64,000 nucleotides of DNA. Origin: an uncultured Bacilli bacterium (GTDB lineage: Bacteria; Bacillota_I; Bacilli_A; RF39; UBA660). Positions within the stretch are counted from its first letter, which is position 1, and each line of letters starts with the position of its first letter. Position numbers and translations under genes: made by a program. This document shows, piece by piece, positions 8,810 to 56,115 of this stretch. Under the pieces are notes generated by a model. The model made no database searches. It saw nothing but the letters and a program-made list of their open reading frames with translations, and was not told the DNA's origin. Location: the NCBI GenBank assembly GCA_944373095.1, contig CALWAK010000001.1:12719-76718 (forward strand), in the 5' to 3' direction.

Positions 8810-8814
8810 TATTT

Positions 8815-9528: not shown

Positions 9529-9548
9529 TTTTTCACCCTGTTTCTATG

Positions 9549-10286: not shown

Positions 10287-10343
10287 TCCTTGTATTCTAC
10301 TATTGCTATATTAATTTTAACATCTAATATTTGGATATACAAG

Positions 10344-10376
10344 AGCAAATAAAAAAGAGTGTTAATTACACTCAAA
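10344..10376 (-). terminator. Internal Rho-independent terminator between the TadC-like gene and cassette 2
   Basis: Transcript GAGUGU-AAUUA-ACACUC hairpin followed by UUUUUUAUUU; a TTGTAT-N17-TAAAAT promoter-like element lies immediately downstream. Confidence 0.5.
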
Positions 10377-10381
10377 AATTT

Positions 10382-12072: not shown

Positions 12073-12081
12073 ATCATCACC

Positions 12082-13473: not shown

Positions 13474-13492
13474 AACATCAACCCTTTTCTTT

Positions 13493-14263: not shown

Positions 14264-14277
14264 AAATTTCCTTTCTC

Positions 14278-15081: not shown

Positions 15082-15095
15082 TTTATTCTCCTTAA

Positions 15096-15797: not shown

Positions 15798-15808
15798 AAG
15801 TCTTCCTC

Positions 15809-18800: not shown

Positions 18801-20305
18801 TATAAATGGATTCCACTTTGACCATTATAAGTACTATATCCCTTAAATCCATCTACATTGCTTGGATAAAAACCATTTTGAAATATTTTTAGCGAAGTAC
18901 AAGTATTTTGAGTAGTGCTACTAGAACTATTGCTAGTATTAAAATTATTTCCTAAAATACCACTAACTTGGCCGTTATTTATCAAACCATTTATGATATC
19001 TTCTAATTTTACCGAATTATTATTGCCTTGAATACTATTTAAAATATTAGTAATAGTTTCATTGCTATTTCCACCTAAAATAACGTTAATTGCATCTTTG
19101 ATAACTGTGCTACTATATTTATTTATAGTATCACTAATAATTTTATCAATATTACCAGTATTTCCGTCCTTAATTACTTGATTAACAATATCAGTTAACA
19201 TATTTTTAATAGTATTATTAACATTTACATCATTTCCTATAGAAGTACTAATTGTTCTTGGATCAAATTGAATTAAACTATAAAAGCAATTAGTTGGAAC
19301 AGCTTGATTTTTTCCAATATATTTATAACCATCTTCACAAACGTAATATCCACCAGGGCTTGTCATAGATATTCCATCTTGACCTAAAACAATACCACCA
19401 ACTTTAGTATTAATTATAGCTTGAGGACTAATTCCATAATTTCCTTTATTATCAGAAGAAACATCTATCTTTAAAGTATATGAATCTACACCTAAATTTG
19501 ATATAGCTTCACTAGTCTTACAAGTAATTGAACAGCTTCCATTATTTGTAGCTGTAATATTTACCTTTCCGTCTACAACTAAATAACTTGCAACACCACA
19601 AGTACCACTACAAGACTCAGTTGAGAAATTTTTATTTAAATTTAGAAGTGTGCCTAATTGAAATGTTACATCATCTCCAGTGGTAGTATCTGTTGAACCG
19701 CCTGTTGAACTAGAGCCAGAGCCGGTTGAACTAGAACCACCTGAACTTGTTGAACCACCGGTTGAACTAGAATCACCTGTTGAATCTTGATGTTCTGAAT
19801 CATCTTCTTTAGTCACATTAACTCGATAAAGATTGTTGCCAACATAAGCAATTGCAAAGCAAGTTTTATTTTCAGCAACTAGTTTACATGAAGTATTCCC
19901 ATTGCTATCTTTAGTTGCTGTTGTTTTAAGACAGCTCTCATCACTAGATTTACAAGTAGGTGATTCAGATGTTACCGATAAAGATCCCATTGAACTTCCA
20001 TATTCTAAATTCAAATATCTAATTCTACCAACTTTAACAGTATAATTTTTGTATCCATCATTACCAACTGATACATTAGCAACGCAACTTTGACCATATG
20101 CTTTTAAAGTACATACGTTATCTTTTAAAAGTGCAGATACACAAGCTTTATTATAACTAACGCAAACATTAGAATCACTAAATTCCATTTCTTGAAATGG
20201 ATATAAATAAGCATCACTTGCATTAACTTTAAAACCAAAACCAAATATACATATTAAAGAAAATAATGATATTGATAATTTTTTATAATTAACTAATTTT
20301 TTCAT
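15809..20305 (-). CDS. Giant secreted Cys-rich protein, paralog 1 (1498 aa); putative adhesin
   Basis: Sec signal MKKLVNYKKLSISLFSLICIFGFGFKVNA, an S/G/T-rich linker and many Cys. Conserved blocks shared with 5162..8809. Start overlaps the upstream stop (ATGA). Confidence 0.65.
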   Translation of the reverse strand: MKKLVNYKKLSISLFSLICIFGFGFKVNASDAYLYPFQEMEFSDSNVCVSYNKACVSALLKDNVCTLKAYGQSCVANVSVGNDGYKNYTVKVGRIRYLNLEYGSSMGSLSVTSESPTCKSSDESCLKTTATKDSNGNTSCKLVAENKTCFAIAYVGNNLYRVNVTKEDDSEHQDSTGDSSSTGGSTSSGGSSSTGSGSSSTGGSTDTTTGDDVTFQLGTLLNLNKNFSTESCSGTCGVASYLVVDGKVNITATNNGSCSITCKTSEAISNLGVDSYTLKIDVSSDNKGNYGISPQAIINTKVGGIVLGQDGISMTSPGGYYVCEDGYKYIGKNQAVPTNCFYSLIQFDPRTISTSIGNDVNVNNTIKNMLTDIVNQVIKDGNTGNIDKIISDTINKYSSTVIKDAINVILGGNSNETITNILNSIQGNNNSVKLEDIINGLINNGQVSGILGNNFNTSNSSSSTTQNTCTSLKIFQNGFYPSNVDGFKGYSTYNGQSGIHLYEATANCTDDKTTIYDAFCIDPAMHGPHQKENGDSRSYYNITDTVDLNTEFGRAIYILYRDYYANTGKTAKDLYIATQVSRFLLGKIKDGKYEFLGWDNGPYKDKAQAYMNSAVTSDVRAIYEDVLNKAKSEDFSASEVSIDVSHSSGDNVEDGIKFIVTAKNVTDISKVTDLNLYVVDNNTKKDISSMFTISKGEWKQKDKDYVMEVTVKAFNLDEDVCEVILLASAKYNGENDVANIGIATSTTSSGTLQRFLIFNKSGVSNINDYENFKVNKTCNSNSACTPVAEYTCDDASSVTYVVEGTEAKDSNVKWESCIIGEEGEDGNVSGGKDPNGNTYELQEDNGYCAIYCKEDYAFKVPGNLNQYSANGNGFAQGRYISINLDKHYHAVAGLAGQKTCVTSEVMTEKFLKDSVEQKKDLLDAVNRYYKYKAQKEALENSDCLDDPTSNSIINYTYSIYKFENSSTSHDIIESNIVLLTSSASHRLIVEGSKNSQTSGTGNNIIDNIFGNSIKKNNYNELLSNINNGISTAQKDYNDALNKLNNQVDKIQDCTTWTDEEKLKDSYEFEPEIRFDYAENEYIDMMNGNNKLQPEKEVTSTTLGYYCEDNKETVVETGSCSTSVSDDNKITVKVPNSSIENATKSTDEIYYEYKRITGIVKYGDPGVALDGTRKEPELIYYKSSVPFYTHPNKGIVTTDNTDDSTLIDIGDKNRPDGTKPDGLVYPIKLTTPAGIYDYKLTFKNIGQYFMTDDTLGRIMGNNNGQEGYLTVNESDSYLCKYTVCAIDDPNCDNTPDGNEVCSNILASDVCKSGDIEDLDECISALLDKECCDEVINLNKMTINMVDRYNAVCPKQKYCQGFGIIEGNNGTSNDTGSAIIVNGKLEFTPKSVSLNNLFPNSSDSKGFNWVGTTHDGTSIGSIIEDIESAGESIYNNEPDFKIVINATCRAKILEYNNTQENNSLGFNDYTLSMNSSGTYDTSTFLAQLEAAGCIVEKDFD

Positions 20306-21015
20306 TTTTTCTTTCCCTTTCTCTTATAAACTTTTATATAAAATATGTATCCCCCAGCACTTAAACAAGCAACTAATATTGCAATTGGAACCCAATTGTT
20401 TTTTAATAAATCTACTGCTTGTCCTATTATCCCTTCTTTATCCTCTTCTTCCTTTCTTTTTGCATAATCTTCAATTCCTTTATAAAATTCTTTTTCAGAA
20501 ATATTATCTAAAAAAACAAATTCACTACAGTAATAATAATCAGGATACTCATCACATTGACTATATATACTAAATAAATTATAACGTGGAATCGAAATAT
20601 CAATTGTACGAATAACATTATCTATACATGAAGAATCAGTAGCGTAAACTTCTATCTTATATTTTTTTACTTCATTAGCCATCCCTGTTCCAACATATAT
20701 AACATTGTCAGCTGAAACATCATCTATTGTATATTTTCTAGAATTTCCATTATTATCTATAACATTTATATAAATATCTTCAGTTATATTATAAATATGA
20801 ATTAACCCATACCAATAAGAATCAGTTACATACTCTCCATATGTTTCATCATAATAGTCATTCTCATACAAAAAGGTTTCATACTCTGCCCTAACTGCAC
20901 CTGCAGCATTGTTTATTTTTGCTTGTGTTTCATAGTCACATTCAGCATATACGTAGTTTGTAAAACATAAAAATAACATAAAAGGTACAAGCACTAAAAC
21001 CTTTTTCATTTTCAT
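20302..21015 (-). CDS. Small type-I membrane protein (signal peptide + C-terminal TM), cassette-1 copy
   Basis: MKMKKVLVLVPFMLFLCFTNYVYA signal and C-terminal TM (WVPIAILVACLSAGGYIFYI). Paralog of 8815..9528. Start set at the ATG at 21015, preceded by GGGTGGTG. Confidence 0.55.
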   Translation of the reverse strand: MKMKKVLVLVPFMLFLCFTNYVYAECDYETQAKINNAAGAVRAEYETFLYENDYYDETYGEYVTDSYWYGLIHIYNITEDIYINVIDNNGNSRKYTIDDVSADNVIYVGTGMANEVKKYKIEVYATDSSCIDNVIRTIDISIPRYNLFSIYSQCDEYPDYYYCSEFVFLDNISEKEFYKGIEDYAKRKEEEDKEGIIGQAVDLLKNNWVPIAILVACLSAGGYIFYIKVYKRKGKKK

Positions 21016-21040
21016 AGCACCACCCACATTTCTACATTTA

Positions 21041-39140: not shown

Positions 39141-39150
39141 TATCACATCT

Positions 39151-41091
39151 TTAATAATAAACTGTCCGAGTTTCAGTTTCACATATATCACATCCAGTTG
39201 CCGAGCAACTCTTGCTTCCATCAGTCCAACTAGTCCATGGATACCATGTATCACATCCATTACATTTACTTGCACATCTTTTATATACGTCACAACTGCC
39301 ATCTGAACATGGTGATTGTGTGCCATCTTCATACCAATGATTAGGGTTTGAAGAACCCGAGTTTGCTGCATCACAATCACTTGAAGAAAAATTGTCATTA
39401 CAAGGATATGAACTACAACCAGTTTGATTTTGAGGATCCCAACAACTTGTACACATTTGATTAGAACTATTTGAACCACATGATGTCAATGTTTCATTAG
39501 AAGTATTTGGACACATTCTAGGTACTTCACATTCAGCAGCTGAACATCTTTTTCCATCTTTACAATTTCTTGTTCGATATTGTGGTTGTGGATATACCAT
39601 TACACTACATGTACCTTTATTATTTAAATTATCGTATATTTCAAATGTATGTAATCCATCTTTTAAATTATCTTTAGTTAAAGTTAATTCTTTTACTCCA
39701 CTATGATCATCTTGTTCCTGAAATACAACTTTTAATCCATCTATATCTGTTTTTACATCATATTTTTGGTATGACGTACAATAAGGGGGAGTTGTATCAA
39801 CCAATGTATTAACTGTTTTTACACAATGAGTTGAATTACCTAAGTTATCATATATATACCAATCTACTACATCATAAACTTTTGTGCTTGTTATATCTAC
39901 TTTATAACTTGTTGTATTATCATTACAAGTTGTTTCTCCATTTTTAGTGGTACATTTGCAACCACTACCTGAGTCGGTACTACAACCATATGTATATGAA
40001 TAACTTGTTTTCCATGCTGTATTATCTTCTGGATACAAACATGTTGGTCCAGTTTTATCTATATTAGTTATTTCAAATGATGTTGATTTTGATATATTAC
40101 CAGATTTATCAATTACATACGCATAATATATACCAACATCTTCTCTTACTTTAGCCATATCCTCGCCCAAAGACGAATCAATATCTATATTAAAATCACT
40201 TTCTGTCGGCTCATAACTAGAGTTTGCAGTAACAAAAAATTTACTTATTCCCGATCCTAAACCATCACTTCCTACTAAAGTCACCTCTTTATTTCCATCA
40301 CTCCATGTTGGTGATACACTTACTTGAACAAATGGTTTTTCTTTATCTATTTTTACTTTACTTTTTTTTACTGCATTCCCACTACTTAATTTCATTGTAA
40401 ACATAAATTCATTATTTAATAATGAATCTGTACTTACTACCAATATATTGGCATATTCATTACTATTTACATCATCTAAAGTTGTTAAATCATATAATAC
40501 TTTTCCTGTTTTTTCTTTATTACCTGATGCTGTTTGCCATACTGCTGTAACCTCTTCAGGTAATTCTTCATCAACTAAACTTAAATCTGCAACTAATAAA
40601 ACATTTTTATTTGTCCAGTTAAATTCATCATTATTTCTAAATATAGATGCACCAACTGATGAACCATCTATTTCATAAGCAAACAAGTTTATATTATGAC
40701 TACTTTCCTCTAATTCAATATTACAATTCTCTTTATTTGAATCTATAGATATATCATATTCCATTCCATCTCTAGTTATATACACACAATATTCATCTAA
40801 ATATCCACCTAGAGGATTTTCTATTTTTTCAAATTCATTATTTTCTGGTATTTCTTCTAATAAATATCCCATTTCTATTAGTTTATTTACTGATACAATA
40901 TCACTATCAATATTATTTTCATTAGCATATATATATGCTTTAGATTTTATATTTTCTAACTTTGTTTCATATTCCCTTTGTCTAACTACTTCTGTTAATT
41001 TATTATAGGCAGGAACTGCCATAAATATTAGTATTGATAGTATTACTAATACTGCTAGTAATTCTACTATTGTAAAACCCTTTTTTCTCAT
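39151..41091 (-). CDS. Modular type IV pilin-like protein, copy A (646 aa): prepilin N-terminus + large C-terminal module ending in a Cys-rich domain
   Basis: MRKKG|FTIVELLAVLVILSILIFMAVPAYNK is a class III (prepilin) signal with Gly at -1, Phe at +1 and Glu at +5, plus a hydrophobic alpha1 helix. The C-terminal about 130 aa carry more than 20 Cys. RBS GGAGTG 5 nt before the ATG at 41091. Confidence 0.75.
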   Translation of the reverse strand: MRKKGFTIVELLAVLVILSILIFMAVPAYNKLTEVVRQREYETKLENIKSKAYIYANENNIDSDIVSVNKLIEMGYLLEEIPENNEFEKIENPLGGYLDEYCVYITRDGMEYDISIDSNKENCNIELEESSHNINLFAYEIDGSSVGASIFRNNDEFNWTNKNVLLVADLSLVDEELPEEVTAVWQTASGNKEKTGKVLYDLTTLDDVNSNEYANILVVSTDSLLNNEFMFTMKLSSGNAVKKSKVKIDKEKPFVQVSVSPTWSDGNKEVTLVGSDGLGSGISKFFVTANSSYEPTESDFNIDIDSSLGEDMAKVREDVGIYYAYVIDKSGNISKSTSFEITNIDKTGPTCLYPEDNTAWKTSYSYTYGCSTDSGSGCKCTTKNGETTCNDNTTSYKVDITSTKVYDVVDWYIYDNLGNSTHCVKTVNTLVDTTPPYCTSYQKYDVKTDIDGLKVVFQEQDDHSGVKELTLTKDNLKDGLHTFEIYDNLNNKGTCSVMVYPQPQYRTRNCKDGKRCSAAECEVPRMCPNTSNETLTSCGSNSSNQMCTSCWDPQNQTGCSSYPCNDNFSSSDCDAANSGSSNPNHWYEDGTQSPCSDGSCDVYKRCASKCNGCDTWYPWTSWTDGSKSCSATGCDICETETRTVYY

Positions 41092-41102
41092 ATACACTCC
41101 TT

Positions 41103-43043
41103 TTAATAATAAACCATACGAGTTTCAGTCTCGCATATATCGCATCCAGTTGCTGAGCAACTCTTGCTTCCATCAGTCCAACTAGTCCATGGATACCATG
41201 TATCACATCCATTACATTTACTTGCACATCTTTTATATACGTCACAACTGCCATCTGAACATGGTGATTGTGTGCCATCTTCATACCAATGATTAGGGTT
41301 TGAAGAACCCGAGTTTGCTGCATCACAATCACTTGAAGAAAAATTGTCATTACAAGGATATGAACTACAACCAGTTTGATTTTGAGGATCCCAACAACTT
41401 GTACACATTTGATTAGAACTATTTGAACCACATGATGTCAATGTTTCATTAGAAGTATTTGGACACATTCTAGGTACTTCACATTCAGCAGCTGAACATC
41501 TTTTTCCATCTTTACAATTTCTTGTTCGATATTGTGGTTGTGGATATACCATTACACTACATGTACCTTTATTATTTAAATTATCGTATATTTCAAATGT
41601 ATGTAATCCATCTTTTAAATTATCTTTAGTTAAAGTTAATTCTTTTACTCCACTATGATCATCTTGTTCCTGAAATACAACTTTTAATCCATCTATATCT
41701 GTTTTTACATCATATTTTTGGTATGACGTACAATAAGGGGGAGTTGTATCAACCAATGTATTAACTGTTTTTACACAATGAGTTGAATTACCTAAGTTAT
41801 CATATATATACCAATCTACTACATCATAAACTTTTGTGCTTGTTATATCTACTTTATAACTTGTTGTATTATCATTACAAGTTGTTTCTCCATTTTTAGT
41901 GGTACATTTGCAACCACTACCTGAGTCGGTACTACAACCATATGTATATGAATAACTTGTTTTCCATGCTGTATTATCTTCTGGATACAAACATGTTGGT
42001 CCAGTTTTATCTATATTAGTTATTTCAAATGATGTTGATTTTGATATATTACCAGATTTATCAATTACATACGCATAATATATACCAACATCTTCTCTTA
42101 CTTTAGCCATATCCTCGCCCAAAGACGAATCAATATCTATATTAAAATCACTTTCTGTCGGCTCATAACTAGAGTTTGCAGTAACAAAAAATTTACTTAT
42201 TCCCGATCCTAAACCATCACTTCCTACTAAAGTCACCTCTTTATTTCCATCACTCCATGTTGGTGATACACTTACTTGAACAAATGGTTTTTCTTTATCT
42301 ATTTTTACTTTACTTTTTTTTACTGCATTCCCACTACTTAATTTCATTGTAAACATAAATTCATTATTTAATAATGAATCTGTACTTACTACCAATATAT
42401 TGGCATATTCATTACTATTTACATCATCTAAAGTTGTTAAATCATATAATACTTTTCCTGTTTTTTCTTTATTACCTGATGCTGTTTGCCATACTGCTGT
42501 AACCTCTTCAGGTAATTCTTCATCAACTAAACTTAAATCTGCAACTAATAAAACATTTTTATTTGTCCAGTTAAATTCATCATTATTTCTAAATATAGAT
42601 GCACCAACTGATGAACCATCTATTTCATAAGCAAACAAGTTTATATTATGACTACTTTCCTCTAATTCAATATTACAATTCTCTTTATTTGAATCTATAG
42701 ATATATCATATTCCATTCCATCTCTAGTTATATACACACAATATTCATCTAAATATCCACCTAGAGGATTTTCTATTTTTTCAAATTCATTATTTTCTGG
42801 TATTTCTTCTAATAAATATCCCATTTCTATTAGTTTATTTACTGATACAATATCACTATCAATATTGTTTTCATTAGCATATATATATGCTTTAGATTTT
42901 ATATTTTCTAACTTTGTTTCATATTCTCTTTGTCTAACTACTTCTGTTACTTTATTATAGGCAGGAACTGCCATAAATATTAGTATTAATAGTATTACTA
43001 ATACTGCTAGTAATTCTACGATTGTAAAACCTTTTTTATTCAT
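41103..43043 (-). CDS. Modular type IV pilin-like protein, copy B (646 aa)
   Basis: MNKKG|FTIVELLAVLVILLILIFMAVPAYNK. Differs from copy A by only a handful of residues (leader R/N, S/L, L/V, T/M near the C-terminus). Start set at the ATG at 43043. Confidence 0.75.
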   Translation of the reverse strand: MNKKGFTIVELLAVLVILLILIFMAVPAYNKVTEVVRQREYETKLENIKSKAYIYANENNIDSDIVSVNKLIEMGYLLEEIPENNEFEKIENPLGGYLDEYCVYITRDGMEYDISIDSNKENCNIELEESSHNINLFAYEIDGSSVGASIFRNNDEFNWTNKNVLLVADLSLVDEELPEEVTAVWQTASGNKEKTGKVLYDLTTLDDVNSNEYANILVVSTDSLLNNEFMFTMKLSSGNAVKKSKVKIDKEKPFVQVSVSPTWSDGNKEVTLVGSDGLGSGISKFFVTANSSYEPTESDFNIDIDSSLGEDMAKVREDVGIYYAYVIDKSGNISKSTSFEITNIDKTGPTCLYPEDNTAWKTSYSYTYGCSTDSGSGCKCTTKNGETTCNDNTTSYKVDITSTKVYDVVDWYIYDNLGNSTHCVKTVNTLVDTTPPYCTSYQKYDVKTDIDGLKVVFQEQDDHSGVKELTLTKDNLKDGLHTFEIYDNLNNKGTCSVMVYPQPQYRTRNCKDGKRCSAAECEVPRMCPNTSNETLTSCGSNSSNQMCTSCWDPQNQTGCSSYPCNDNFSSSDCDAANSGSSNPNHWYEDGTQSPCSDGSCDVYKRCASKCNGCDTWYPWTSWTDGSKSCSATGCDICETETRMVYY

Positions 43044-43077
43044 CTCTACCATCCTAAAAAGATTATAGCAAATAATA

Positions 43078-43990: not shown

Positions 43991-44306
43991 ATTTTCCCTC
44001 CTTAACATAAGACACGCCTTTAAGGTGACCTAAAGTTCTTTTTTACCTTTTTAGTGCGGTTTTAAAGAAAGCCCTTAAAACGCTTTAATTCTATCAAGAA
44101 TTTTAAAATATGTCAAACAATTTATACTAATTATAGTATAAAATTAATTTTTTTATAAAAAAATTATACAACTAAGAAAGAAAATTAAACTAAATTTTTT
44201 TAATTTTACTAAAATAGTTATATAAGTTTTATTTTAAATATTTATTAAAAGAAAAATTTAGCTTTATTTAAATTTTAAAGCATAATTATTTTTGTTTTAA
44301 ATTTAA

Positions 44307-47300
44307 TTAGCAACCACCGCCGCCACTTGAGCCTCCATCATCTGTTTCAATTTCATCTTTCCATATTGCTGTTAATGTGATAGTACCACCGTCTTCCGAA
44401 ACTATGTTTTTTAAATTAGCTAAATTTTCATGGGGAGTACCATTACTATCTAGCCATCCAGCAAACGTTGTGTTAGCTTTCGTAAATTGATTTTCAGGAA
44501 GATAACAATCTTGATCATATACACAAGTTCTAGATTCCATAAAACCTTTACCTGTACCTGAACTAAACAAAATTGTAAATTTATTTGGAGCAGCTACTAA
44601 ATTTATTGAAGCATCACCCTCAAGCAATCGAATTTTCAAAAAAGAAATATTGTCAACATTTATTTTTTCAATTGGTCCAAATGAAGTAAAGCCTGAATAA
44701 TGATATCCTATTTTAGCATTTATTTCAGATATTTCAATATTTGTAAAGTAAGGAATAATTTCATTGTAATAAGTTTGTTGACTTAAAATTGGATTATTTC
44801 CAACTTTTACATTAAAAGACGCTATATTTTGATCAGTCTCTATCTTAAAATTATATTTTTCATTTGTCCAATGAGCATATAATGTTTGATTACCAGGAGT
44901 TTTATAAATTGTACTATTACTTATTAAATCTCCACCTTCTTTTTCAGTATACCAGCCTATAAAAATATATTCATCCTTCGTAGGAATAGGCAAATAACCA
45001 TAATTATTTCCAAACAAGACATTAATATTTTGCGTATCAATTAATCCACCATTAGCATCAAAATATACAATGTACTCATTAGATTTCCAATGAGCATATA
45101 AAGTATGAGTTTTATTTTCAATAACAACAGATTCAGATGTAATTTTGTTGCCACTAGTAAATTTAGTATACCAGCCATCAAATTCATATCCAATTCGAAA
45201 TGGAATTGGTAAATCTCCATAAGTTTTTGTGTATGTTACTTGTTTACTTTGAGGATTAACAGTTCCACCTGTTGCATCAAAATTAACAGAATAATTTGCT
45301 AATCTCCAATGAGCATAAATTGTTTGACTTTCAGTTAAAGTAACAATGTCATTTTCATCAATTCTAGTTCCGCCTTCTCTTTTAGTATACCAGCCATCAA
45401 ACTCATAACCATCTCTTGTTGCAGTTGGTAAAACCCCATATTTAGAATTATGTAGAACCCAAATTGTTTTAAAGTCTAAATTAACATTATCAGCATTTCC
45501 ATCAAAAGTTAGTTCAAAATAATTGTCCAAAGTTCCATTTATTTTAGTAATTTTAATAAATCCATTTCCTTCTTTTGCTGAATAACTAATTGGTTCATAC
45601 TCTCCATCATCAACCCTATAAATATTGTTGGTCGATATTGTATAAGTATCTGTTGATTCACTACTTTGGCAATTATAGCAATACATTTTTTTATCGTATA
45701 GGCTATTATTTACATAGCCCGAGCCACCTGTTCCAATTTTAAGAGTGCTTGCTCTACCGCCATAATATCCACCTCCTGAGCCTGAATAATTATTTCCAGA
45801 TTCACCTTGGCCAAATGAAAATCCATTAGACTGGGTCCCCCCATTATCACTAGAAGTTGCCCCACTACCAATGTATCCTCCTCCTGAACCACCATTTTTC
45901 CCATCGTTACCGGTCACTATAGCTCCGCCGCCACCACCAGCAACTAATATTATAGAAGATTTATTAGATTCTAAACCACTTAAAACTCCATTAATAGTGG
46001 CAATATGGCTAGCTCCGCCGCCACCAGCGCATAAATTATTATCAGTGCAATTTGCACCGCCGCCACCGTTAAAACTTGTGGATATAGTAGTAGAATTATT
46101 AAAATTATCACTACCTTTTTCTCCTACAGCCAAATATAAATAAGTATTATATGAAATATCTAACATACCGATACTATAGCCACCATAGCCACCACTATAA
46201 GTTGTATTATTTTTAGAAACTGAACCTCCTTGTGCTCCCCATGCTTCTAATTTATAGCTACCTGGTGCCGTTATTAATAAACGCTCTACTGTACCCGTAT
46301 AAGGATAATAAAAAACCTCATTTGTCCAAAAAGCATATAATGTCATATTTTTATTAATAGTTTCATTCTCATTTGGCCTACCTAATCTATCAAAATATCT
46401 TGTTCCTGTCCCATTAGGACTACTAAAATAGCCTAAAAAAGTGTAATTTTCACGTTTTGGTGGTGCAATAGTAAATAGATTTTGGCCAGCAGTTAAACTA
46501 ATATATGTTTTTGCAACATCATTTCCATTATCAAAAGTAATATTAATTTTCTCATAACTTTCTAAAAGTTCATAAGATATTGTACCTTCAAAATAATTTA
46601 TTTTATAACGATTATTTATTGTTCCATCAGAATTTAATTTTGTACCATCAAAATATTCTTTTGCTTCATCTAAATTCCATGAATTTGCATTAATTATATC
46701 TGTTACATCAGTAAATAATAATTCATCAATTAAAATATATGCACCAGAAATATTTGTATTAGATTCGATACTAAAATCTACTACATTAAAGTTATCAGTA
46801 ACTTCAATTTTAAAAACAATGGAATCCTGATACCAATCAGAATATCCACCATTAAGATTGATACTATTATTACCATCAACATAGCAGCCACTGCTACAAG
46901 TAATATTAATTTTATTATCGCCATTTGTTGACTGATTTCTTAAAATTTTTGAACTAACATAAATATAATGAGTTCCAACACTTAAATTTTCTAATTTTTG
47001 TAAAATATTACGACTTACATTTTTTTTGCCAACTTCATAATTATATGTATTACTTTGAGTTCCATTTTGATATATCTCAGAATAATTATAAGTTCCTAAC
47101 ATTAAAGCATAGTCTCCAGAATATCTAACATTTTTTATATAGCGATAAGCATAATCTCTATCATTATTCCAATTTTCAATAGTAGAATCTAGTTTATAAT
47201 CTTTTGAACCATTATAATGAATCTCTACTAAATAATCAGTATCATAAATTGCTGAACTAGGATTAGATGGATATTCAAAGCCACTATTTTTCAAATAATT

Positions 47301-47480
47301 AGTTATCTTAAAATATTTAGATTCAATTAGATTATTTAAAGAATTTGTAACATCTCTATTACTGCTAAAAATAATACCTTGATAGTATGCATAAGTTCCT
47401 ATTATTGCTGCAATTAATGCTATGAAAACTATAATAAAAGAATATATTAGTGAAGAAGAAACAAACCCTTTTTTATTCAT
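44307..47480 (-). CDS. Large surface protein (1057 aa) with a prepilin-like MNKKGF leader (non-canonical, Ser at +5), a Gly-rich region and five or more Listeria-Bacteroides (Flg_new) repeats
   Basis: N-terminus MNKKGFVSSSLIYSFIIVFIALIAAIIG. Repeats such as GYEFDGWYTKREGGTRIDENDIVTLTESQTIYAHW, GYEFDGWYTKFTSG...HTLYAHW, YIFIGWYTEKEGG...QTLYAHW, YTFLGYFSSPNGTG...TLYAFW and TFAGWLDSNGT...TLTAIW. Ends ...GGSSGGGGC. Confidence 0.7.
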   Translation of the reverse strand: MNKKGFVSSSLIYSFIIVFIALIAAIIGTYAYYQGIIFSSNRDVTNSLNNLIESKYFKITNYLKNSGFEYPSNPSSAIYDTDYLVEIHYNGSKDYKLDSTIENWNNDRDYAYRYIKNVRYSGDYALMLGTYNYSEIYQNGTQSNTYNYEVGKKNVSRNILQKLENLSVGTHYIYVSSKILRNQSTNGDNKINITCSSGCYVDGNNSINLNGGYSDWYQDSIVFKIEVTDNFNVVDFSIESNTNISGAYILIDELLFTDVTDIINANSWNLDEAKEYFDGTKLNSDGTINNRYKINYFEGTISYELLESYEKINITFDNGNDVAKTYISLTAGQNLFTIAPPKRENYTFLGYFSSPNGTGTRYFDRLGRPNENETINKNMTLYAFWTNEVFYYPYTGTVERLLITAPGSYKLEAWGAQGGSVSKNNTTYSGGYGGYSIGMLDISYNTYLYLAVGEKGSDNFNNSTTISTSFNGGGGANCTDNNLCAGGGGASHIATINGVLSGLESNKSSIILVAGGGGGAIVTGNDGKNGGSGGGYIGSGATSSDNGGTQSNGFSFGQGESGNNYSGSGGGYYGGRASTLKIGTGGSGYVNNSLYDKKMYCYNCQSSESTDTYTISTNNIYRVDDGEYEPISYSAKEGNGFIKITKINGTLDNYFELTFDGNADNVNLDFKTIWVLHNSKYGVLPTATRDGYEFDGWYTKREGGTRIDENDIVTLTESQTIYAHWRLANYSVNFDATGGTVNPQSKQVTYTKTYGDLPIPFRIGYEFDGWYTKFTSGNKITSESVVIENKTHTLYAHWKSNEYIVYFDANGGLIDTQNINVLFGNNYGYLPIPTKDEYIFIGWYTEKEGGDLISNSTIYKTPGNQTLYAHWTNEKYNFKIETDQNIASFNVKVGNNPILSQQTYYNEIIPYFTNIEISEINAKIGYHYSGFTSFGPIEKINVDNISFLKIRLLEGDASINLVAAPNKFTILFSSGTGKGFMESRTCVYDQDCYLPENQFTKANTTFAGWLDSNGTPHENLANLKNIVSEDGGTITLTAIWKDEIETDDGGSSGGGGC

Positions 47481-47638
47481 AAAAACATCTACCTTTACTA
47501 AAGTGATTATAACATGAATAAAAGAGATTGTAAATTGATGATTAATAAAATAATTTTCTTCTTAACAATTTTTCATATAATCAAAATGATTATGCTATTT
47601 TTGATATATAATTAATAATTCAATTCTATTTTTAACAA

Positions 47639-48412
47639 TTAAATAGTTCTTTTTTTAGAATAGTATAAATAATAATCGTTTATTAATTGTTCAGTTGTAA
47701 TTTTATATTTTATTGTCATTTCCTGATTAGGCAAACGATATAATTCATGAAAAAAGCCTTTTTCATCTACCAAATTTATGCCAAAACTTTCTAAAAAATT
47801 TGTTTTAGCAACTAATTCTTGTATCGAAATACAAGCTAATATATTTCTATTAATATAAGCGTCTATATTTTTACTCTTGCAAAAATTTATTATAAAATTT
47901 CTATTTACTTTAGTATTCCATATCATTCCTATGTTAATTAATTTTTGACCTTGATAACTTGTAGGACTTATTTTTTCTCTTTGTTTAGTTATCCATCTTC
48001 CTAACAAAATTTTTCCATTTGGACTATATTCATAACCATTATCAGTTTTAAAACTTACAGGCACTTCTAAATTTTTATGAAATTTATAATATATACAAGC
48101 ATATTTATAAAAATCATCCCAACTAAGAACCTTGCGATTAAAGCGCATACCTATCTTTAATAAATCCTTCCCAAACTCACTATTTGGATCAATAGTACTT
48201 CTTTTACTAGCTATCCAAACTCCTAAATTATATTTTCCATTCTCATTTTCTTCATATCCATTATCAGTTTTAAAATCTATAGGAACCTCTAAGTTTCCAT
48301 AATATTCATAATACTTACAAGCAAGATTATACATTATACGTTTATAACGTTCTCTTTTAGATAAATCATTATTATTTTCTAATACATTTTCTATATTGAT
48401 TACTTCTAACAT
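47639..48412 (-). CDS. Protein with two helicase-associated (HA) domain repeats
   Basis: Tandem YYEYYGNLEVPIDFKTDNGYE...LGVWIASKR and YYKFHKNLEVPVSFKTDNGYE...LGRWITKQR. Confidence 0.5.
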   Translation of the reverse strand: MLEVINIENVLENNNDLSKRERYKRIMYNLACKYYEYYGNLEVPIDFKTDNGYEENENGKYNLGVWIASKRSTIDPNSEFGKDLLKIGMRFNRKVLSWDDFYKYACIYYKFHKNLEVPVSFKTDNGYEYSPNGKILLGRWITKQREKISPTSYQGQKLINIGMIWNTKVNRNFIINFCKSKNIDAYINRNILACISIQELVAKTNFLESFGINLVDEKGFFHELYRLPNQEMTIKYKITTEQLINDYYLYYSKKRTI

Positions 48413-48620: not shown

Positions 48621-49145
48621 TTAATTTACATTAACTTTTAATATATATTTAACAGATATATCTTCTATATTAGAGGATTTTTTATTCCATATACTAAATT
48701 TCAATTCATTAGATGAATAAGGTTCTAATGAACTATTTAATATTTCAAAACAAGAATTATCATAATTAAATTTATTTAAAGATTTTACTAAAGACTTATT
48801 TATACTTATTCTAATATTTTCTTTATTAGAATCATTACCACATAATAATACGTGATAACTTTTTTTTATATTAGAATTATTAGTTAACATTATAGTATTA
48901 GATTCTAAATTAATTCCTTCTATATCAGATACTTTTTCTAACTTTTTATCTATATTAGAATCAATATCTATTACTACATCTTTTAATACATAAGTATCTC
49001 TATTATTAGTTAATAACCATTTACCTAATAGTATAGATAAATATATTAAAATAAAAACTATAAAAAGACATTGAATAATTAGAAAAATAATTTGATTATC
49101 AATAAAATCTTTATATTTCATACTATCACAATCTAATAATAGCAC
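48621..49145 (-). CDS. Hypothetical membrane-anchored protein
   Basis: N-terminal TM (IIFLIIQCLFIVFILIYLSILLG). No family recognised; start ambiguous, with an alternative ATG at 49121. Confidence 0.4.
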   Translation of the reverse strand: MLLLDCDSMKYKDFIDNQIIFLIIQCLFIVFILIYLSILLGKWLLTNNRDTYVLKDVVIDIDSNIDKKLEKVSDIEGINLESNTIMLTNNSNIKKSYHVLLCGNDSNKENIRISINKSLVKSLNKFNYDNSCFEILNSSLEPYSSNELKFSIWNKKSSNIEDISVKYILKVNVN

Positions 49146-49195: not shown

Positions 49196-49393
49196 GTGGT
49201 GAAGCTTATGTGTAATAATCGACCTCGAATCCCCGGATTTTTTACTATTTTAGCCATAATGGCACTATCAATATTAATATTTTATCAAACTATAATAACT
49301 TTAATCTTACCATTTAGATGGAATATCTTTTTACTACTTATTGAAGTATCATTATTATTCTTTTTAATCTTTAGAATAATATGGCCTTATTAA
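49196..49393 (+). CDS. Possible small membrane protein (65 aa) on the plus strand
   Basis: Lies in the gap between two minus-strand genes. RBS GGTGA 5 nt before the ATG; two predicted TM helices. Confidence 0.3.
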   Translation: MVKLMCNNRPRIPGFFTILAIMALSILIFYQTIITLILPFRWNIFLLLIEVSLLFFLIFRIIWPY

Positions 49394-50239
49394 TTTCTCA
49401 GTTTTATAAATATAGTCTATTAAGTTATTAATCATCTTACAATTTTCTAACTCATTTTTAGTTAAATTAATAGTCCAAGGCATACTAATCATTATAAATA
49501 ATAATTTTTTTTCATCTTCCAATAATTCAAATATACTTAAATATTTTTTTAATACTGGTTCAAAAGAAGCAGAATAGTACTCTTTCCTATATAATTTTAT
49601 TATATCAAGTATAGGGCTATCAATAATATATTCATTCCAACTAATAATGTTATTATTTACTAAATGATTTAGTTCTAAATTATTATGAAGTAAGGCTACT
49701 CTTTTAGTTTTATTATCTTTAACAAGTTCATACCAATTATCAAGTTCTTGTTCACAGAATAATAAGCTATTATTTATTTTAGTATAATTTCGCATAAATA
49801 AATATGTAGAAGGAGACATATATATTTCTTTAAAGCCTTCTTCAAACATATTACCATAATATTCTTTTAAATAAAGAATATTATTTTTTATATCTTCATA
49901 GACACTCTTAAATTTATCTTCACTTACTTCTTTAAAATAAGCAGTTTTTCTATGTAAATCCGCTATTAATACGATTAAATCATTTATTTTTTGTTCTTTT
50001 GGAACTTCTATATCTTCAACATAATTAAATAAATATTCATTATCTTTATTATCTATTATCTTTGGATGACTATTAAAGTTTCTTGAATCTAGATATTTAA
50101 ATAAACTATTAAGATCATTATTACACTCTTTTAAAACATAATTACCAGCAGTACTTTCTAAAATAATACTTTTACCTTTATAAGTATAACGATATGGTTT
50201 TATTTTATTTTTTAACTCTTCAATATATCTATTAGTCAC
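49364..50239 (-). CDS. CotS-family/phosphotransferase-like (spore-coat-type kinase fold) protein
   Basis: About 290 aa with HNNLELNHLVNNNIISWNEYIIDSP, which resembles the kinase-like catalytic loop of the CotS/YutH family. Tentative. Confidence 0.4.
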   Translation of the reverse strand: MTNRYIEELKNKIKPYRYTYKGKSIILESTAGNYVLKECNNDLNSLFKYLDSRNFNSHPKIIDNKDNEYLFNYVEDIEVPKEQKINDLIVLIADLHRKTAYFKEVSEDKFKSVYEDIKNNILYLKEYYGNMFEEGFKEIYMSPSTYLFMRNYTKINNSLLFCEQELDNWYELVKDNKTKRVALLHNNLELNHLVNNNIISWNEYIIDSPILDIIKLYRKEYYSASFEPVLKKYLSIFELLEDEKKLLFIMISMPWTINLTKNELENCKMINNLIDYIYKTEKLIRPYYSKD

Positions 50240-50924
50240 TATTTTCTGGTATTAATACTTTATCTCCTGTTTCCCATTTAATAAACTCATTATACTCATT
50301 TAAAGTATCTTTAGAAACATTATATTTTAATGCAATAGAATCAATATTTTCTCCTTCGTCTAATACATGAATATGATAAGTTACATATGTATTAACTGTA
50401 TTAAAACTATTATTTAAAACAACATTATCCGTAGTATTAGTAGTTTTTTCATTAATTACATTGTCTTTAACTATTTCATTAGTTTTATCTAAAACATTAT
50501 CTAATATATTAATATCATTGTCTTTATTTTCTTCTATATTAATTATTTCTTCATTATCAATAGGAATATTAATTCTTTCTTCTTCCTCTTCTTTTTGTAT
50601 TTTTTCTTCTACTTCTTCATAGTCTAAACTAAATTCAATATTTACTCTTAAAGTATCTTCATCAAGTATTTCATAAGTAAAATTATTTATATCATGTTTA
50701 ATAGAATCTCTAATTATATTATCACTTAATTCTATGCTAAATGGGATACGATACTTAAATGGTTCTTTATTAACACTAAGTTCATGAATTTTATATTCTC
50801 CAGTCAAAATAAAATCCCCACTTAATTCCTCATCTAATACATTAGCTTCATATTCTAAAGAAATACTACATATTTCTTTTATTTTAGTATTAAATACTAT
50901 TTCTTTTTCATAAGGTACTATCAT
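50232..50924 (-). CDS. LysM-domain protein (C-terminal LysM; the N-terminal domain may be SPOCS/DUF3794-like, as in SipL/SafA-type morphogenetic proteins)
   Basis: C-terminus YHIHVLDEGENIDSIALKYNVSKDTLNEYNEFIKWETGDKVLIP is a LysM domain. An acidic E-rich linker precedes it. Confidence 0.5.
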   Translation of the reverse strand: MIVPYEKEIVFNTKIKEICSISLEYEANVLDEELSGDFILTGEYKIHELSVNKEPFKYRIPFSIELSDNIIRDSIKHDINNFTYEILDEDTLRVNIEFSLDYEEVEEKIQKEEEEERINIPIDNEEIINIEENKDNDINILDNVLDKTNEIVKDNVINEKTTNTTDNVVLNNSFNTVNTYVTYHIHVLDEGENIDSIALKYNVSKDTLNEYNEFIKWETGDKVLIPENSD

Positions 50925-52426: not shown

Positions 52427-54206
52427 TTATAACATCCAAAAATATATATACTTATTCTTTCTTTCTAATTTTTTTGAATTGTCAGAATTTGATTTTTTCT
52501 TATCTACTCTATTACTATACTCATCATATTCTTCTAATCTAGTTAAGTAACTTTTTAATTCACTTTTTATTTCATATAAATCACTTATTATTTTCGTTTT
52601 AATAATTAATATATCACTTGTTAAACCATAGGTTTTATTATTTGATTCGATAATACTATTTAAATCTTCATTATTTAATAATTTATACCAATATTTTAAT
52701 AATTTTTTTAGTTTATTATTTATATTATCTTTAGTATTGTCATCTAATAGACAATTATTAGTTAAACTTAGTATTTCTTTTAGAATAGAAATTAACCAAT
52801 TATCATTTTCATTAACCTTATTTTTCATATATTTTTTAGTTAAAGCAATATCATTTAATAATTCTTTATTTTCCATTATTTTAGAAATTTCCTTATTTAA
52901 TTCTTCTAAGATACGATTTAATTCCTGACGAAAGTTAGTCTCAATTTGACAAGCTGATAAATATTCTTCATCATCAAATAAAAAAAACAACATTATCTTT
53001 TACAAACTTAATATATTTTTTAATTAACTTATGATATTTATCATATAGTTCACTAATTATTTTATTATTTATATTAGTAAATACATCATTTAAACTGATT
53101 AATTCATTTGCTAAACTACTATTCCCCTCAAATTGCAAACTCTTTAATAAATTTTCATATGGTAAAGCAAGCATTACTTGTTGATATATTTTATCAAGTT
53201 CAATATTAAAAAATATATTTATATCAATGTCATTTAAATCTATTTTATTATTAAATATATTACTTAAACTATTATTAATAAATTCTTTAGCAGCCAATAA
53301 TAACTCTTTTAATTTATTTACTAAACTCTTATTTTTAAATAAACTAGAAATTTCTTTTATTTTACGTATTTTATTAAAATTATTATCATCTTTTAATTCT
53401 ATATATTTATCTTCTATAATAAAACTATAATACTCTCTTATTTTAAAAGATAAATTTAACATTTTCTTATTACTGTTTAATAATATTAATATATTATTTA
53501 AAGAAATGATTAAATTATTTTGTAAGTCTCTAGGACTTGTACATTCTAAAGTTAAACAAGTATTTTCTTTTCGATTATAATCTTGTTTAAAATTCGATAG
53601 ATTATTCTCATATTCATCTAACAATTTAGAAACTTTTCTTTTAATAACATTAGCAACCTCATCATCCAAGCTTTTACAAAGTTTTTTAATTTCCTTTACT
53701 AAGTCTTTTACTTCATCATCATTAATATTAGATTTAGCTAAATCTAATTCTTCTACAATACTAATTTGTATGCCATTCATATAAGAAAGTTTTTTTATCA
53801 TAGTTTTTTCGTGAGTAGAAAGTTTATTATTTACAATAACTATTTTTTTTAACTTATTAAAATTATCAATTGTATAAATTCTATCGTGTAATAAGAATTT
53901 TTTTAAAAAATTATAATCACCATCAATAGCATTAATTTTTGTTACTAAAGAAAAATTATTATCAGCAATAAAAAGGCCATTATTATAAAAAGTTAGTTCA
54001 TTTATTGGATTATTAAAAAAGGCATACGAAAATATATCTGTAACACTACTTGGTATAAATAGCTTTGTTATATAGTTATTCGCAAAAGCATATCCTCCTA
54101 TTACTTTAACACCATTTTCTATAACAATAGAATCTATATTCTTGTTGTAGTACTCTTCACATTCTATTTGTTTCTTATCATCGTGAATTATTAAAGTCTT
54201 CCCCAT
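52427..54206 (-). pseudogene. BspA-type LRR protein paralog split by a -1/+1 frameshift in a T8 homopolymer (ORFs 52974..54206 and 52427..52993)
   Basis: The two ORFs align end-to-end with the intact 618-aa paralog (...KYIKFVKDNVVFF | LFDDEEYLSACQIETNFRQ... vs ...KYIDIIKSNVTDIFNNQEFLSANQIETNFRQ...). The junction is at aaaaaaaa, 52980..52987. Confidence 0.6.
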
Positions 54207-54258
54207 AAAAATATCCCCTTAATTGGGGATATTATAGCATATTTTTTATATAAGTAAA

Positions 54259-56115
54259 TTAATTTCTTCCAGAATAGTATTTGTCATATTTAGCAAAATC
54301 CCAAAAAGAAAGATGCTTATATTCTTTTTTTAATTCTTTTGAATTATTTTCTATTAAACTACTTTTAGTTTCTTTGGTTTTATTCATCTCTAAATTATTG
54401 TATTTATTATATTCTTCTAATCGTATTAAATAACTTTCCACTTCTCTTTTTATTTCATAGAAATCTCTAATTATTTTTGTTTTTACTATTAAAACGTCAC
54501 TTGTTAAACCATAACTATTATTAAGAGATTCAACAATACTATTTAAACTATTATTGCTTAATAATGTGTACCAATATTGTAACAATTTTGTTAACTTATC
54601 ATTAATATCTCCTACAATGTTATCTTCTAATAAATTATTATTAGTTAAACTCAATACCTCTATGATAATAGAAATTAACCAATTTTCATTTTCACTATAA
54701 TGATATTCTATATACTTGTTAGCTAGACATATATCACTAAGTAATTCTTGATTTTCTAATATTTTAGGTAATTCTTTATTTAATTCTTCTAATAATAAAT
54801 TTAACTCTTGACGAAAATTAGTTTCAATTTGATTAGCTGATAAAAATTCTTGATTATTAAAAATATCAGTTACATTGCTTTTTATAATATCAATATATTT
54901 TTTTATTAATTCTTGATATTTATTAAATAAAGAATTAAGTAATTCGCTATTTACCTTACTAAATATATCATTTAAATTATTTAAATCAGCTGCTAATTTA
55001 CTATCGCCTTTTAGTCCTAAACTCTTTAACAAATTTTCATATGGAATTAAAAATAATGCTTGTTGATAAATTTTATCAAGTTCAGAATCAAAAAGACTAG
55101 GTATATCTAAGTTAGTCAAATCTAATTTATCATTAAATAAATTATCTAAATTATTATTAATTTGCATTTTTATATTTAATAATAACTCTGCAACTTTAGC
55201 AACTAAAAATTTATTTTTAAATATTCTATCTAATTCTTTTATTTTACTTATTTTTTTAAAATTATTATCTTCTGCTACTTCTATATTTTTATCATACATA
55301 AAAAATTCATTATATCGAGTTATTTTAGTTGATAAATTTAATATTTTTTTACGACTATTTAATAACAATATTAAATTATTTAAAGATATGATTAAATTAT
55401 TTCGTAAATCTCTAGGATTTGTACATTCTAATGTTAATATTTGTTCTTCTTGATAATAATCTGGTTTTAAATTTACTAAATTTTTATTATATTCATCTAA
55501 TAATTTAGTAACTTTCATTTGAATTATATTACTACTCTGTTCATCTAACCCCTTACAAAGTAACTTAATTTCTTCTAATAAATTATTTAACTCATCATCA
55601 ACACTAATTTCTTGAAAAGAATCTTCTTCTGCAACATTAAACCTAGTTATATCAGTTGCAAAACTTATTTGAATTCCTTTTATCATGGCAAATTCTTTTA
55701 TTTTTCTCTTTTCACTAAAAGTTAATTTATTATTAACTAGCACTATTCTTTCTAATTTTTTAAAATTATCTGTATCAATAATTTCAATATATCTAAAAAA
55801 TTTTTCTAAAAAAGCAGAATTACCATTTATTACATTAAGTGTTAAGACATAATAAAAATTATAATCACAAATATAAGGTAAAATTCCATTATTATAAAGC
55901 GTTAACTCTGTTATTGGATTTCCAGAAAAAGCCTCATAAAAAATTTTATCTATACTTTTAGGTATAATCAAATTAGTTATATTATTGTGAGCAAAAGCAC
56001 GTACTGCTATTTCTTTAACTCCTTCTTTTATAAAAAGAAAAGCAATACCTTGATCAAAATATTCTTCATATTTAATAAGTTGTCTTTTTCCATCAATTAC
56101 TACAGTTTTTCCCAT
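54259..56115 (-). CDS. BspA-type leucine-rich-repeat N-terminal domain protein with a long helical C-terminal region (618 aa)
   Basis: N-terminus IKEGVKEIAVRAFAHNNITNLIIPKSIDKIFYEAFSGNPITELTLYNNG follows the LRR_5 pattern. Own promoter and RBS shared verbatim with the paralog. Confidence 0.5.
   Translation of the reverse strand: MGKTVVIDGKRQLIKYEEYFDQGIAFLFIKEGVKEIAVRAFAHNNITNLIIPKSIDKIFYEAFSGNPITELTLYNNGILPYICDYNFYYVLTLNVINGNSAFLEKFFRYIEIIDTDNFKKLERIVLVNNKLTFSEKRKIKEFAMIKGIQISFATDITRFNVAEEDSFQEISVDDELNNLLEEIKLLCKGLDEQSSNIIQMKVTKLLDEYNKNLVNLKPDYYQEEQILTLECTNPRDLRNNLIISLNNLILLLNSRKKILNLSTKITRYNEFFMYDKNIEVAEDNNFKKISKIKELDRIFKNKFLVAKVAELLLNIKMQINNNLDNLFNDKLDLTNLDIPSLFDSELDKIYQQALFLIPYENLLKSLGLKGDSKLAADLNNLNDIFSKVNSELLNSLFNKYQELIKKYIDIIKSNVTDIFNNQEFLSANQIETNFRQELNLLLEELNKELPKILENQELLSDICLANKYIEYHYSENENWLISIIIEVLSLTNNNLLEDNIVGDINDKLTKLLQYWYTLLSNNSLNSIVESLNNSYGLTSDVLIVKTKIIRDFYEIKREVESYLIRLEEYNKYNNLEMNKTKETKSSLIENNSKELKKEYKHLSFWDFAKYDKYYSGRN

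Follow-up and report, generated by a model that had tools for sequence, protein, structure and literature searches.

A putative Glu5-less type 4 pilin-like subunit with adhesin modules in an uncultured Bacilli bacterium

How does a long, repeat-bearing surface protein come to share its first residues with the pilins encoded beside it, and could it be a pilus subunit itself? The question is raised by a reverse-strand gene in a 64,000-nucleotide stretch of DNA (hereafter the window) from an uncultured Bacilli bacterium (contig CALWAK010000001.1, positions 12,719 to 76,718). An earlier note on this DNA had described a 1057-residue open reading frame at 44307..47480 with a pilin leader, Ser in place of Glu at position +5, a long hydrophobic helix and an array of adhesin repeats, and had read it as a prepilin-type minor or tip pilin. 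The coding sequence lies where it was placed (44307..47480 (-), stop codon included, 1057 amino acids from an ATG), and its product, hereafter the target, is identical to protein P0001 in public assemblies. The product starts MNKKG|FVSSS (N-terminus MNKKGFVSSSLIYSFIIVFIALIAAIIGTYAYY, also given as MNKKGFVSSSLIYSFIIVFIALIAAIIGTYAYYQG); with Gly5 taken as -1, Phe6 is +1 and Ser10 is +5, as the note had said. Judging from the sequence, we give a probability of roughly 0.6 to the reading that the target is a minor or tip type 4 pilin-like subunit, akin to GspK and PilA and without Glu at +5 (Glu5), that carries adhesin modules.

A class III signal ends in Gly or Ala, and the 20-25 hydrophobic residues behind it often, but not invariably, include Glu5 (PMC10191384). 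In the target, a short hydrophilic putative leader, MNKKG (residues 1-5, 47466..47480 (-)), closes in an invariant Gly and is followed by the hydrophobic residues 6-33, which would be the α1N part of a helix of about 50 residues; Glu at +5, frequent in such signals but not obligatory, is replaced by Ser10. The pilin-like α1 helix (residues 6-58, 47307..47465 (-)), outlined by conservation, AlphaFold2 and hhalign, consists of a hydrophobic segment at residues 6-33, with the Ser at +5, and an amphipathic extension. When AlphaFold2 was run on residues 1-320 with 24 family members, it predicted a single 52-residue helix at residues 4-55, with a predicted local distance difference test score (pLDDT) of about 90 over residues 11-30, followed by a β sandwich. 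This model is of moderate confidence (overall pLDDT 64.7, with residues 66-113 and 123-161 below 50), and the model of the full-length protein with five orthologues (pLDDT 34.6) was of no use. The long hydrophobic N-terminal helix described earlier is thus found both in the composition of residues 6-33 and in the model. Across five orthologues, residues 6-33 have a mean pairwise identity of 0.85 versus 0.645 for the whole protein; this segment stands at the 99th percentile of all 28-residue windows and is the most conserved part of the protein. Such conservation fits a helix that is kept in the mature protein, contrary to a usual Sec signal peptide, which is discarded.

The leader is also that of a neighbouring pilin. 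Two tandem, nearly identical genes for canonical modular pilins (39151..43052 (-), KKGFTIVELL, with N_methyl, TIGR02532 and ComGC-like matches) lie 1.3 kb downstream of the target gene. The first of them (41103..43052 (-), 649 amino acids) starts (MVE)MNKKGFTIVELL and, read from the internal Met, has a MNKKGF identical to that of the target, as had been claimed; the second (39151..41097 (-), 648 amino acids) starts M(YM)RKKGFTIVELL, in which M(R)KKGF is close to the target leader. These two pilins are candidate partner subunits of the target.

An exhaustive HMMER search against 1.84 billion representatives, with residues 1-320 as the query and no pattern used, returned 53 proteins, mostly of 240-300 amino acids, that have the N-terminal module and the jelly-roll. 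Their common layout is an N-terminal module, a β-rich body (N(G/S).FE ... IDD.M..DVT) and a short conserved tail, and the consensus of the module reads M(K)KNGFIATSLIYSFF..F......TY.HYR.L...LN..IL..LN. Neither Pfam nor NCBIfam has a match to this family of the first ~310 residues, whose members are annotated as hypothetical. In 31 family sequences that are 22-30% identical to the target (mean ~26%), M1, G5, F6, S14, F15, F19, Y30, N41 and L48 are invariant, and the +5 residue is Ser in 28 and Thr in 3. G5 and F6 are invariant in a second set of 24 family members too; the invariance is taken from the pattern-free HMMER hits only, the pattern used to retrieve loci itself containing Gly-Phe. The start M-x-K-x-G-F recurs in orthologues P0002, P0003 and P0005 and in the 31 family members. 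A start codon lying further downstream, which the earlier note had named as grounds for giving up its reading, was not seen: orthologues and all 31 family members share Met1, and by this comparison the annotated start is secure. The promoter-like site described below, close upstream of this ATG, supports the start as well.

A tie between this module and pili comes from the operons in which it is found. Loci were retrieved with a pattern and by tblastn with the family alignment, one genome being scanned for each species, and all 56 come from metagenome-assembled genomes of uncultured gut Bacilli, "Tenericutes" or Erysipelotrichaceae. Neighbour counts rest on our own calling of open reading frames and on regular expressions, a canonical class III N-terminus being defined as G-F/M-T-L-x-E plus a hydrophobic stretch. 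With this definition, 34 of the 56 loci have one or more canonical class III genes no more than three genes away on the same strand (70 such genes), against a background of 9/444 among the remaining genes of the same loci. Typical operons hold four or five pilin-like genes. The L018 operon (7386-10758), for instance, encodes a 415-residue KNKGFIATSLIYSFF protein, a 174-residue GFVLLET protein and three proteins above the Pfam N_methyl cut-off, and the set is seen in L018 and L028 alike (413-415-residue KGFIATSLIYSFF protein, 174-176-residue GFVLLET protein, three above the N_methyl cut-off). The pair of a Ser5 protein and a 160-210-residue GFVLxET protein recurs across many loci. The N-terminal ~72 residues of the target family align by hhalign to the operon-encoded Glu5-less proteins over 52 columns with a probability of 99.7% (E 1e-25). 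In their leaders (KKGF, KDGF, KRGF), the Ser5 proteins resemble the canonical pilins next to them.

The pilin-like reading therefore stands on the hydrophobic stretch being the best conserved, on the single helix predicted by AlphaFold2 and on the operon-encoded homologues. Several results weigh against it. The N_methyl scan that the earlier note had proposed as a check gave no match of the target to N_methyl (PF07963) or TIGR02532 at E <= 0.1; both neighbouring pilins match. The ComG and Gsp pseudopilin models (ComGG, GspH, GspI and GspJ in NCBIfam, and GspK) do not match the target either. In the AlphaFold2 model of residues 1-320, of moderate confidence, the helix appears to run directly into the jelly-roll, and no pilin α-β head is recognisable. 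A search with the regular expression G[GAMS]GD.K found no prepilin peptidase motif in the window or in the fetched loci. PilB and PilC genes were likewise missing from the window and from the flanks that were fetched, apart from the PilB-like ATPases of L002 and L004. Members of the jelly-roll subfamily nearest to the target are mostly encoded as orphans in the midst of housekeeping genes, and the link to operons accordingly rests on the homology of about 50 N-terminal residues. The motif IIGTYA|YY of the target resembles the SipW-type signals of paralogous proteins with the glycine-rich domain (GRD) described below, and the family N-terminus aligns by hhalign to the starts of those paralogues with 73% and E 3e-5. 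The earlier proposal of a prepilin-type minor or tip pilin with an adhesin array is thus sustained by the homologous module in pilin operons, the invariant Gly at -1 and Phe at +1, the conserved segment and the predicted helix, and is left without a match to N_methyl, TIGR02532, ComGG or GspK and without a peptidase or pilus machinery in the window. Its likeness to the GspK/ComGG type holds for the leader and the missing Glu5, and not for the family models. As a side observation, no minor-pseudopilin model matches the operon-encoded relatives, and ComGG, GspH, GspI and GspJ match the neighbouring pilins weakly.

Several of the same facts would be expected if the helix, derived from a pilin, were no longer processed or polymerised and served as an uncleaved signal-anchor, tethering a long adhesin to the cytoplasmic membrane with its repeats spanning the wall. 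The target and its nearest subfamily are orphan genes with no surrounding pilin operon, Glu5 and an N_methyl match are missing, and the window holds neither a prepilin peptidase nor pilus machinery. A hydrophobic stretch of 22-28 residues has the length of a transmembrane anchor, the strong conservation of the helix fits a retained anchor equally well, and the C-terminus shows no sortase/LPXTG motif or other sign of wall attachment. The leader itself speaks otherwise: Gly5-Phe6 and the short basic leader are invariant across sequences on average only ~26% identical to the target, for which a plain anchor can hardly account. The neighbouring pilin has an identical leader, and the same module is encoded in canonical pilin operons. 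We regard the anchor as unlikely, and as the more serious rival when set beside a signal peptide cleaved in the SipW manner.

In that second alternative, signal peptidase I (SPase I) or a SipW-type enzyme would cut after GTYA31, releasing a secreted or TasA-like surface protein that starts YYQG. By a simple pattern, 38 of the 120 best homologues, paralogous GRD proteins, have an MKK + hydrophobic + G-T-[FY]-A start, some of them with PF12389, and 26 of 31 members of the jelly-roll subfamily have Thr, Ala or Ser at position 31. The hhalign comparison of short N-termini says little here: the family N-terminus also aligns to canonical pilins, in register at KKGF (45%, E 2e-4), and hydrophobic composition dominates both alignments, so that 45% and 73% cannot tell a canonical pilin from a SipW-like start. 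In the operon subfamily, 18 of 18 sequences have Ile, Val or Leu at the equivalent of position 31, with Tyr/Phe30 kept. Most members of the target's own subfamily have no helix breaker before the site (position 28 is mainly Ala). The single helix of the AlphaFold2 model passes through the site, the stretch after it is predicted to be helical and not a TasA-like donor strand, and no part of the protein is better conserved than the would-be signal peptide. The first 60 residues, scanned against NCBIfam up to E 10, gave three weak matches, none to a SipW-cognate signal model. We had considered the -1 residue as an outright exclusion of SPase I; this fails in the target's own subfamily, where the residue is mostly Thr, Ala or Ser, and the argument therefore holds only by way of the homologous operon subfamily. 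Taken together, cleavage at this site appears improbable to us.

Returning to the pilin-like subunit, its assembly might proceed as follows. The basic leader MNKKG would remain cytoplasmic while residues 6-33 enter the membrane as a transmembrane helix via Sec; the prepilin peptidase that serves the neighbouring KKGF pilins would then cut after Gly5, and the retained α1 (about residues 6-58) would dock the subunit into a type 4 filament. The growth of pili starts from a tip complex whose cap is a Glu5-less subunit (PMC10191384, PMC9934059), and GspK/PilK and Streptococcus sanguinis PilA are such capping subunits, PilA being missed by all predictors (PMC9934059). The absence of Glu5 in the target fits a capping or tip place like that of GspK, PilK and S. 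sanguinis PilA: a Ser at +5 would leave the N-terminus of the subunit above without neutralisation and so would favour this position. Some 1000 residues would be shown at the tip, with a CBM-like jelly-roll and an ALK-type GRD, and Flg_new repeats as spacers; a probable role would be adhesion to glycans or other gut ligands. What the sequences show is the domain content, the family to which the first 310 residues belong, the homology of this module to proteins without Glu5 in operons of canonical pilins, the pattern of conservation and the predicted long helix; that the subunit is cleaved, enters a pilus, lies at its tip and binds such a ligand is what we infer from them.

The cargo begins directly after the helix. 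Residues ~59-262 (NSGFE...LIDELLFTDVT, 46695..47306 (-)), delimited by the HMMER family and Foldseek, would form a β jelly-roll like those of CBM4, CBM16 and CBM22, which makes up the body of the parent family of ~270-residue proteins, and are followed by the conserved C-terminal tail of this family (...YFDG...YFEG.ISYE, residues 263-310, 46551..46694 (-), from orthologue and family alignments). A Foldseek search of the PDB with the model of moderate confidence put CBM16, CBM4-2 and CBM22 on top, with E ~1e-3 and TMt ~0.4 in alignments of ~100 columns, and a Pfam scan of the target gave no CBM match; the model suggests a lectin-like jelly-roll. Two side observations touch this region and could both be due to chance: the first 60 residues have a weak NCBIfam match to the archaeal pilin UpsB (E 0.0098, 16 bits), and a helix that leads straight into a β sandwich is a layout nearer to archaeal type 4 pilins than to the bacterial α-β head.

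Beyond the jelly-roll, at least five Flg_new repeats had been predicted, and five stretches are indeed recognised by Pfam (PF09479, E 2.1e-49, 165.9 bits versus a cut-off of 27), at about residues 311-386, 655-726, 728-799, 801-872 and 966-1041; TIGR02543 also matches the target (97 bits against a cut-off of 20.95), and the solved InlB B-repeat 2y5p matches the repeats directly in sequence (E 1.8e-5). The first Flg_new/InlB B-repeat (residues 311-386, 46323..46550 (-), Pfam) precedes what had been taken for a Gly-rich low-complexity region. That description does not hold, as residues 405-646 (45543..46268 (-)) are a full-length ALK/LTK-type glycine-rich domain (ALK_LTK_GRD, PF12810, E 1.6e-35, 123.7 bits versus a cut-off of 24.5, profile positions 6-242 of 243). 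Repeats 2-4 follow (residues 655-872, 44865..45518 (-), Pfam, NCBIfam and the 2y5p match), then a β-rich domain that is conserved in the orthologues and has no family match in Pfam or NCBIfam (residues 874-965, 44586..44861 (-)), and a divergent Flg_new-like repeat 5 (residues 966-1041, 44358..44585 (-), Pfam).

The protein closes with a Gly/Ser linker ending in Cys (residues 1042-1057, 44310..44357 (-), from the orthologue alignment), and the end ...GGSSGGGGC had been read correctly, the TAA stop following directly. The four orthologues P0002-P0005 are 57-66% identical to the target and have the whole architecture in common. P0001 and P0003 end at the linker (...GGC); P0002, P0004 and P0005 run on into one further Flg_new-like domain of ~85 amino acids beyond it. 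A lipid or anchor signal at the terminal Cys was considered and ruled out, given that three orthologues carry another domain beyond it. By the same alignment, the Cys marks a truncation point in the linker where a C-terminal domain was lost, and is no recognisable signal.

The long form itself seems to have a traceable origin. In Coprobacillus sp. CAG:605, a 272-residue family member lies between a C39 ABC transporter and yqfD-ybeY-era-recO, and 1150-residue orthologues of the target hold the same slot, which indicates that the long form is the short form plus a C-terminal extension. A GRD extension like that of the target is also carried by family members P0128, P0151 and P0170.

As to its surroundings, the target appears to be its own transcription unit, to judge from a consensus-matched promoter-like site 26 nt upstream of the ATG (TTTACA, 17 nt, TG-TATAAT; 47506..47534 (-), 11/12 matches with an extended -10, consensus match only). 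The window has a GC content of ~25% and carries the housekeeping genes pheST, dnaK/grpE/hrcA and the rplU operon. The orthologues of the target have no pilin neighbours, and in the window the target gene is set apart from the two pilin genes by the rplU-ysxB-rpmA operon. On the other side, a trio of genes for a LysM protein, a 291-residue protein and a small membrane protein lies beside the target (49196-50924). The same trio precedes a pilin operon in L061 (7220-9026) and Glu5-less GF proteins in L039 and L048 (8201-9890 in both) and in L004 (8386-9944). This synteny places the target where relatives hold pilin-type genes, and the slot after the LysM trio looks like a hot spot for such genes. 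Across loci, the trio encodes a LysM protein of ~221-249 residues, a protein of ~290 residues and, on the opposite strand, a small membrane protein of ~65 residues, the last matched in L061, L039 and L048 and not in L004/L005.

Other features of the neighbourhood can be noted more briefly. The pilin duplication (39150-43053 (-)) consists of two copies of a 1952-bp unit (copy 1 at 39150-41101, copy 2 offset from it by 1952 bp); over the core (39203-40914 in copy 1) the two are 100% identical, differences occur only at both ends, and the pilins have a Cys-rich C-terminal third. The tandem may stem from a recent duplication, from gene conversion or from the assembly. Upstream of rplU-ysxB-rpmA lie an Rfam L21_leader (44000-44071 (-), 41.2 bits) and an 11/12 promoter-like site (44116-44088). 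Directly upstream of the target is a gene for a 257-residue protein with two helicase-associated (HA) domains (47639-48412 (-)); a 174-residue open reading frame (48621-49145) carries a hydrophobic stretch near its N-terminus, lacks a Gly-Phe site and has no homologue among the loci that were fetched, and two BspA-type LRR_5 proteins of 410 and 618 residues are encoded further upstream (52974-56115 (-)).

No PilB, PilC or PilD was found within the 64-kb window; close relatives encode a PilB-type ATPase, in L004 and in L002 on the contig of orthologue P0002. The window does contain a Tad-like locus (8815-21027 (-)) with a T2SSE-family ATPase (12082-13473), two RcpC/CpaB-like proteins (13493-15105) and two polytopic TadB/C-like proteins (10382-12072), in which no Flp-type pilin or peptidase was identified. 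We considered this locus (at 8.8-21 kb) as a candidate for the cognate machinery of the target; its ATPase is only distant kin of the PilB-like ATPases of the relatives. The locus is flanked by two paralogous triplets, each made of a secreted protein (237/241 residues), a giant secreted protein (1218/1498 residues, no family match) and a DUF5411 protein (245/233 residues). In L004 (3653-7374), a lone PilB-type ATPase gene is divergent from the gene of a 531-residue GRD protein with a Glu5 class III-like start (KNGFFLPETIVV), a Laminin_G_3 protein comes next after that GRD protein, and P0025, a 1195-residue protein with four GRDs and a Glu5-less KGFVLST start, is encoded 5 kb from the ATPase/GRD pair.

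A C39-peptidase ABC transporter is encoded directly upstream of target orthologues and short family members (L002 7001-9912, L003 7071-9862, L004 1340-3626, L008, L009 and L013). It comes with a protein of ~145-165 residues and, among the small open reading frames listed for L002-L004, two or three peptides of 39-54 residues; the two peptides read in L004 have double-glycine leaders. We considered a functional tie between this transporter and the target family and dropped it for want of support: MNKKG is not a double-glycine leader, and shared synteny suffices to explain the association.

The combination of a pilin leader with such repeats, which the earlier note called unusual, turns out to be recurrent in this clade. 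Canonical class III N-termini are found in 16 of the 120 best homologues, and three of these 120 (P0007, P0105 and P0119) have N_methyl, Flg_new and GRD together; such repeated mixes argue for recurrence. GRD proteins of related gut Bacilli (P0012-P0118) display three kinds of N-terminus, namely canonical class III, Glu5-less GF, and MKK + hydrophobic + G-T-[FY]-A, and in P0061 and P0077 the SipW/TasA-like start is fused to a camelysin/TasA domain (PF12389). It seems that the GRD recurs as the cargo of filament or secretion signals of different kinds.

Modular pilins, Glu5-less capping pilins and pilins with Flg_new or GRD modules are known already, the last catalogued in 2021, and the novelty here is modest. 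What is new is the family of Ser5 N-terminal modules, unmatched by current models, its direct fusion to a predicted CBM-like jelly-roll and its use as a carrier of a GRD and a Flg_new array. The family was missed here by Pfam N_methyl and by the NCBIfam pilin models, and by analogy with S. sanguinis PilA it would presumably be missed by PilFind as well. It also appears to be confined to uncultured gut Bacilli, and pilin censuses can hence be expected to undercount tip subunits there. The conserved Ser/Thr at +5, set in a sharp motif, offers a natural test of the role of this position in a capping subunit, and the presence of GRDs on three kinds of filament subunit (canonical pilin, Glu5-less pilin-like and SipW-like) would point to a surface-binding role for bacterial GRDs.

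A broader proposal can be put forward tentatively, and we doubt it more than we believe it: clade-specific Ser5 pilin modules (GFIATSLIYSFF) of uncultured gut Bacilli (RF39- or Erysipelotrichales-like), missed by current detectors, might cap type 4 filaments and might have been duplicated into orphan genes that place lectin-like domains and ALK-type GRDs at the pilus tip. If this were true, the bacterial GRD, which has no known function, would gain a first concrete role as a receptor-binding module of pilus tips.

These features can be set against known systems. Like the internalins of Listeria, the target has B-repeats (five above the Pfam cut-off); unlike InlB, it has no leucine-rich repeat internalin domain and no GW or LPXTG anchor, and its repeats flank a GRD and follow a pilin-like helix. 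Its match to the ALK/LTK GRD is full-length, in a bacterial surface protein without a kinase. With SipW/TasA/camelysin signals, it shares a hydrophobic stretch and a G-T-aromatic-A motif (IIGTYAYY), but the site is not conserved as cleavable in the operon subfamily and lies in a region predicted to be helical and highly conserved. Among modular pilins, Raynaud et al. (2021) catalogued 1219 proteins in 264 architectures (PMC8179133), and Dataset S1 of that catalogue lists IPR012902 with the Listeria-Bacteroides repeat IPR013378 (9 proteins with two repeats, plus others) and with PF12810 (2 proteins, plus 1 with three copies). The combination of Flg_new and GRD in the target is an architecture absent from the catalogue. 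S. sanguinis PilB has a vWA module, and PilC has Ig and lectin modules (PMC8179133); as in the target, an N-terminal pilin helix carries grafted binding modules proposed to lie at the pilus tip, and the lectin β-sandwich of PilC may be similar to the jelly-roll (PMC9934059). PilB and PilC have a canonical class III signal with Glu5 and a small pilin head, whereas the target has Ser5, is invisible to IPR012902/N_methyl and passes from the helix straight to the predicted jelly-roll. GspK/PilK (of the HIJK complex), PilA and ComGG resemble the target in having a class III-like leader that ends in Gly and no Glu at +5. The target differs from them in the conserved Ser/Thr at +5, within the distinctive motif GF[IV][AS][TS]S[LI][IM][YF]SF, in lacking a match to the GspK and ComGG models, in being encoded by an orphan gene and in its extension of ~750 amino acids. 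In a set of four or five pilin genes, the capping pilin is the one that is largest or comes first, with a proposed place at the tip (PMC9934059, PMC10191384), and the operon-encoded relatives of the target module hold just such a place in their sets.

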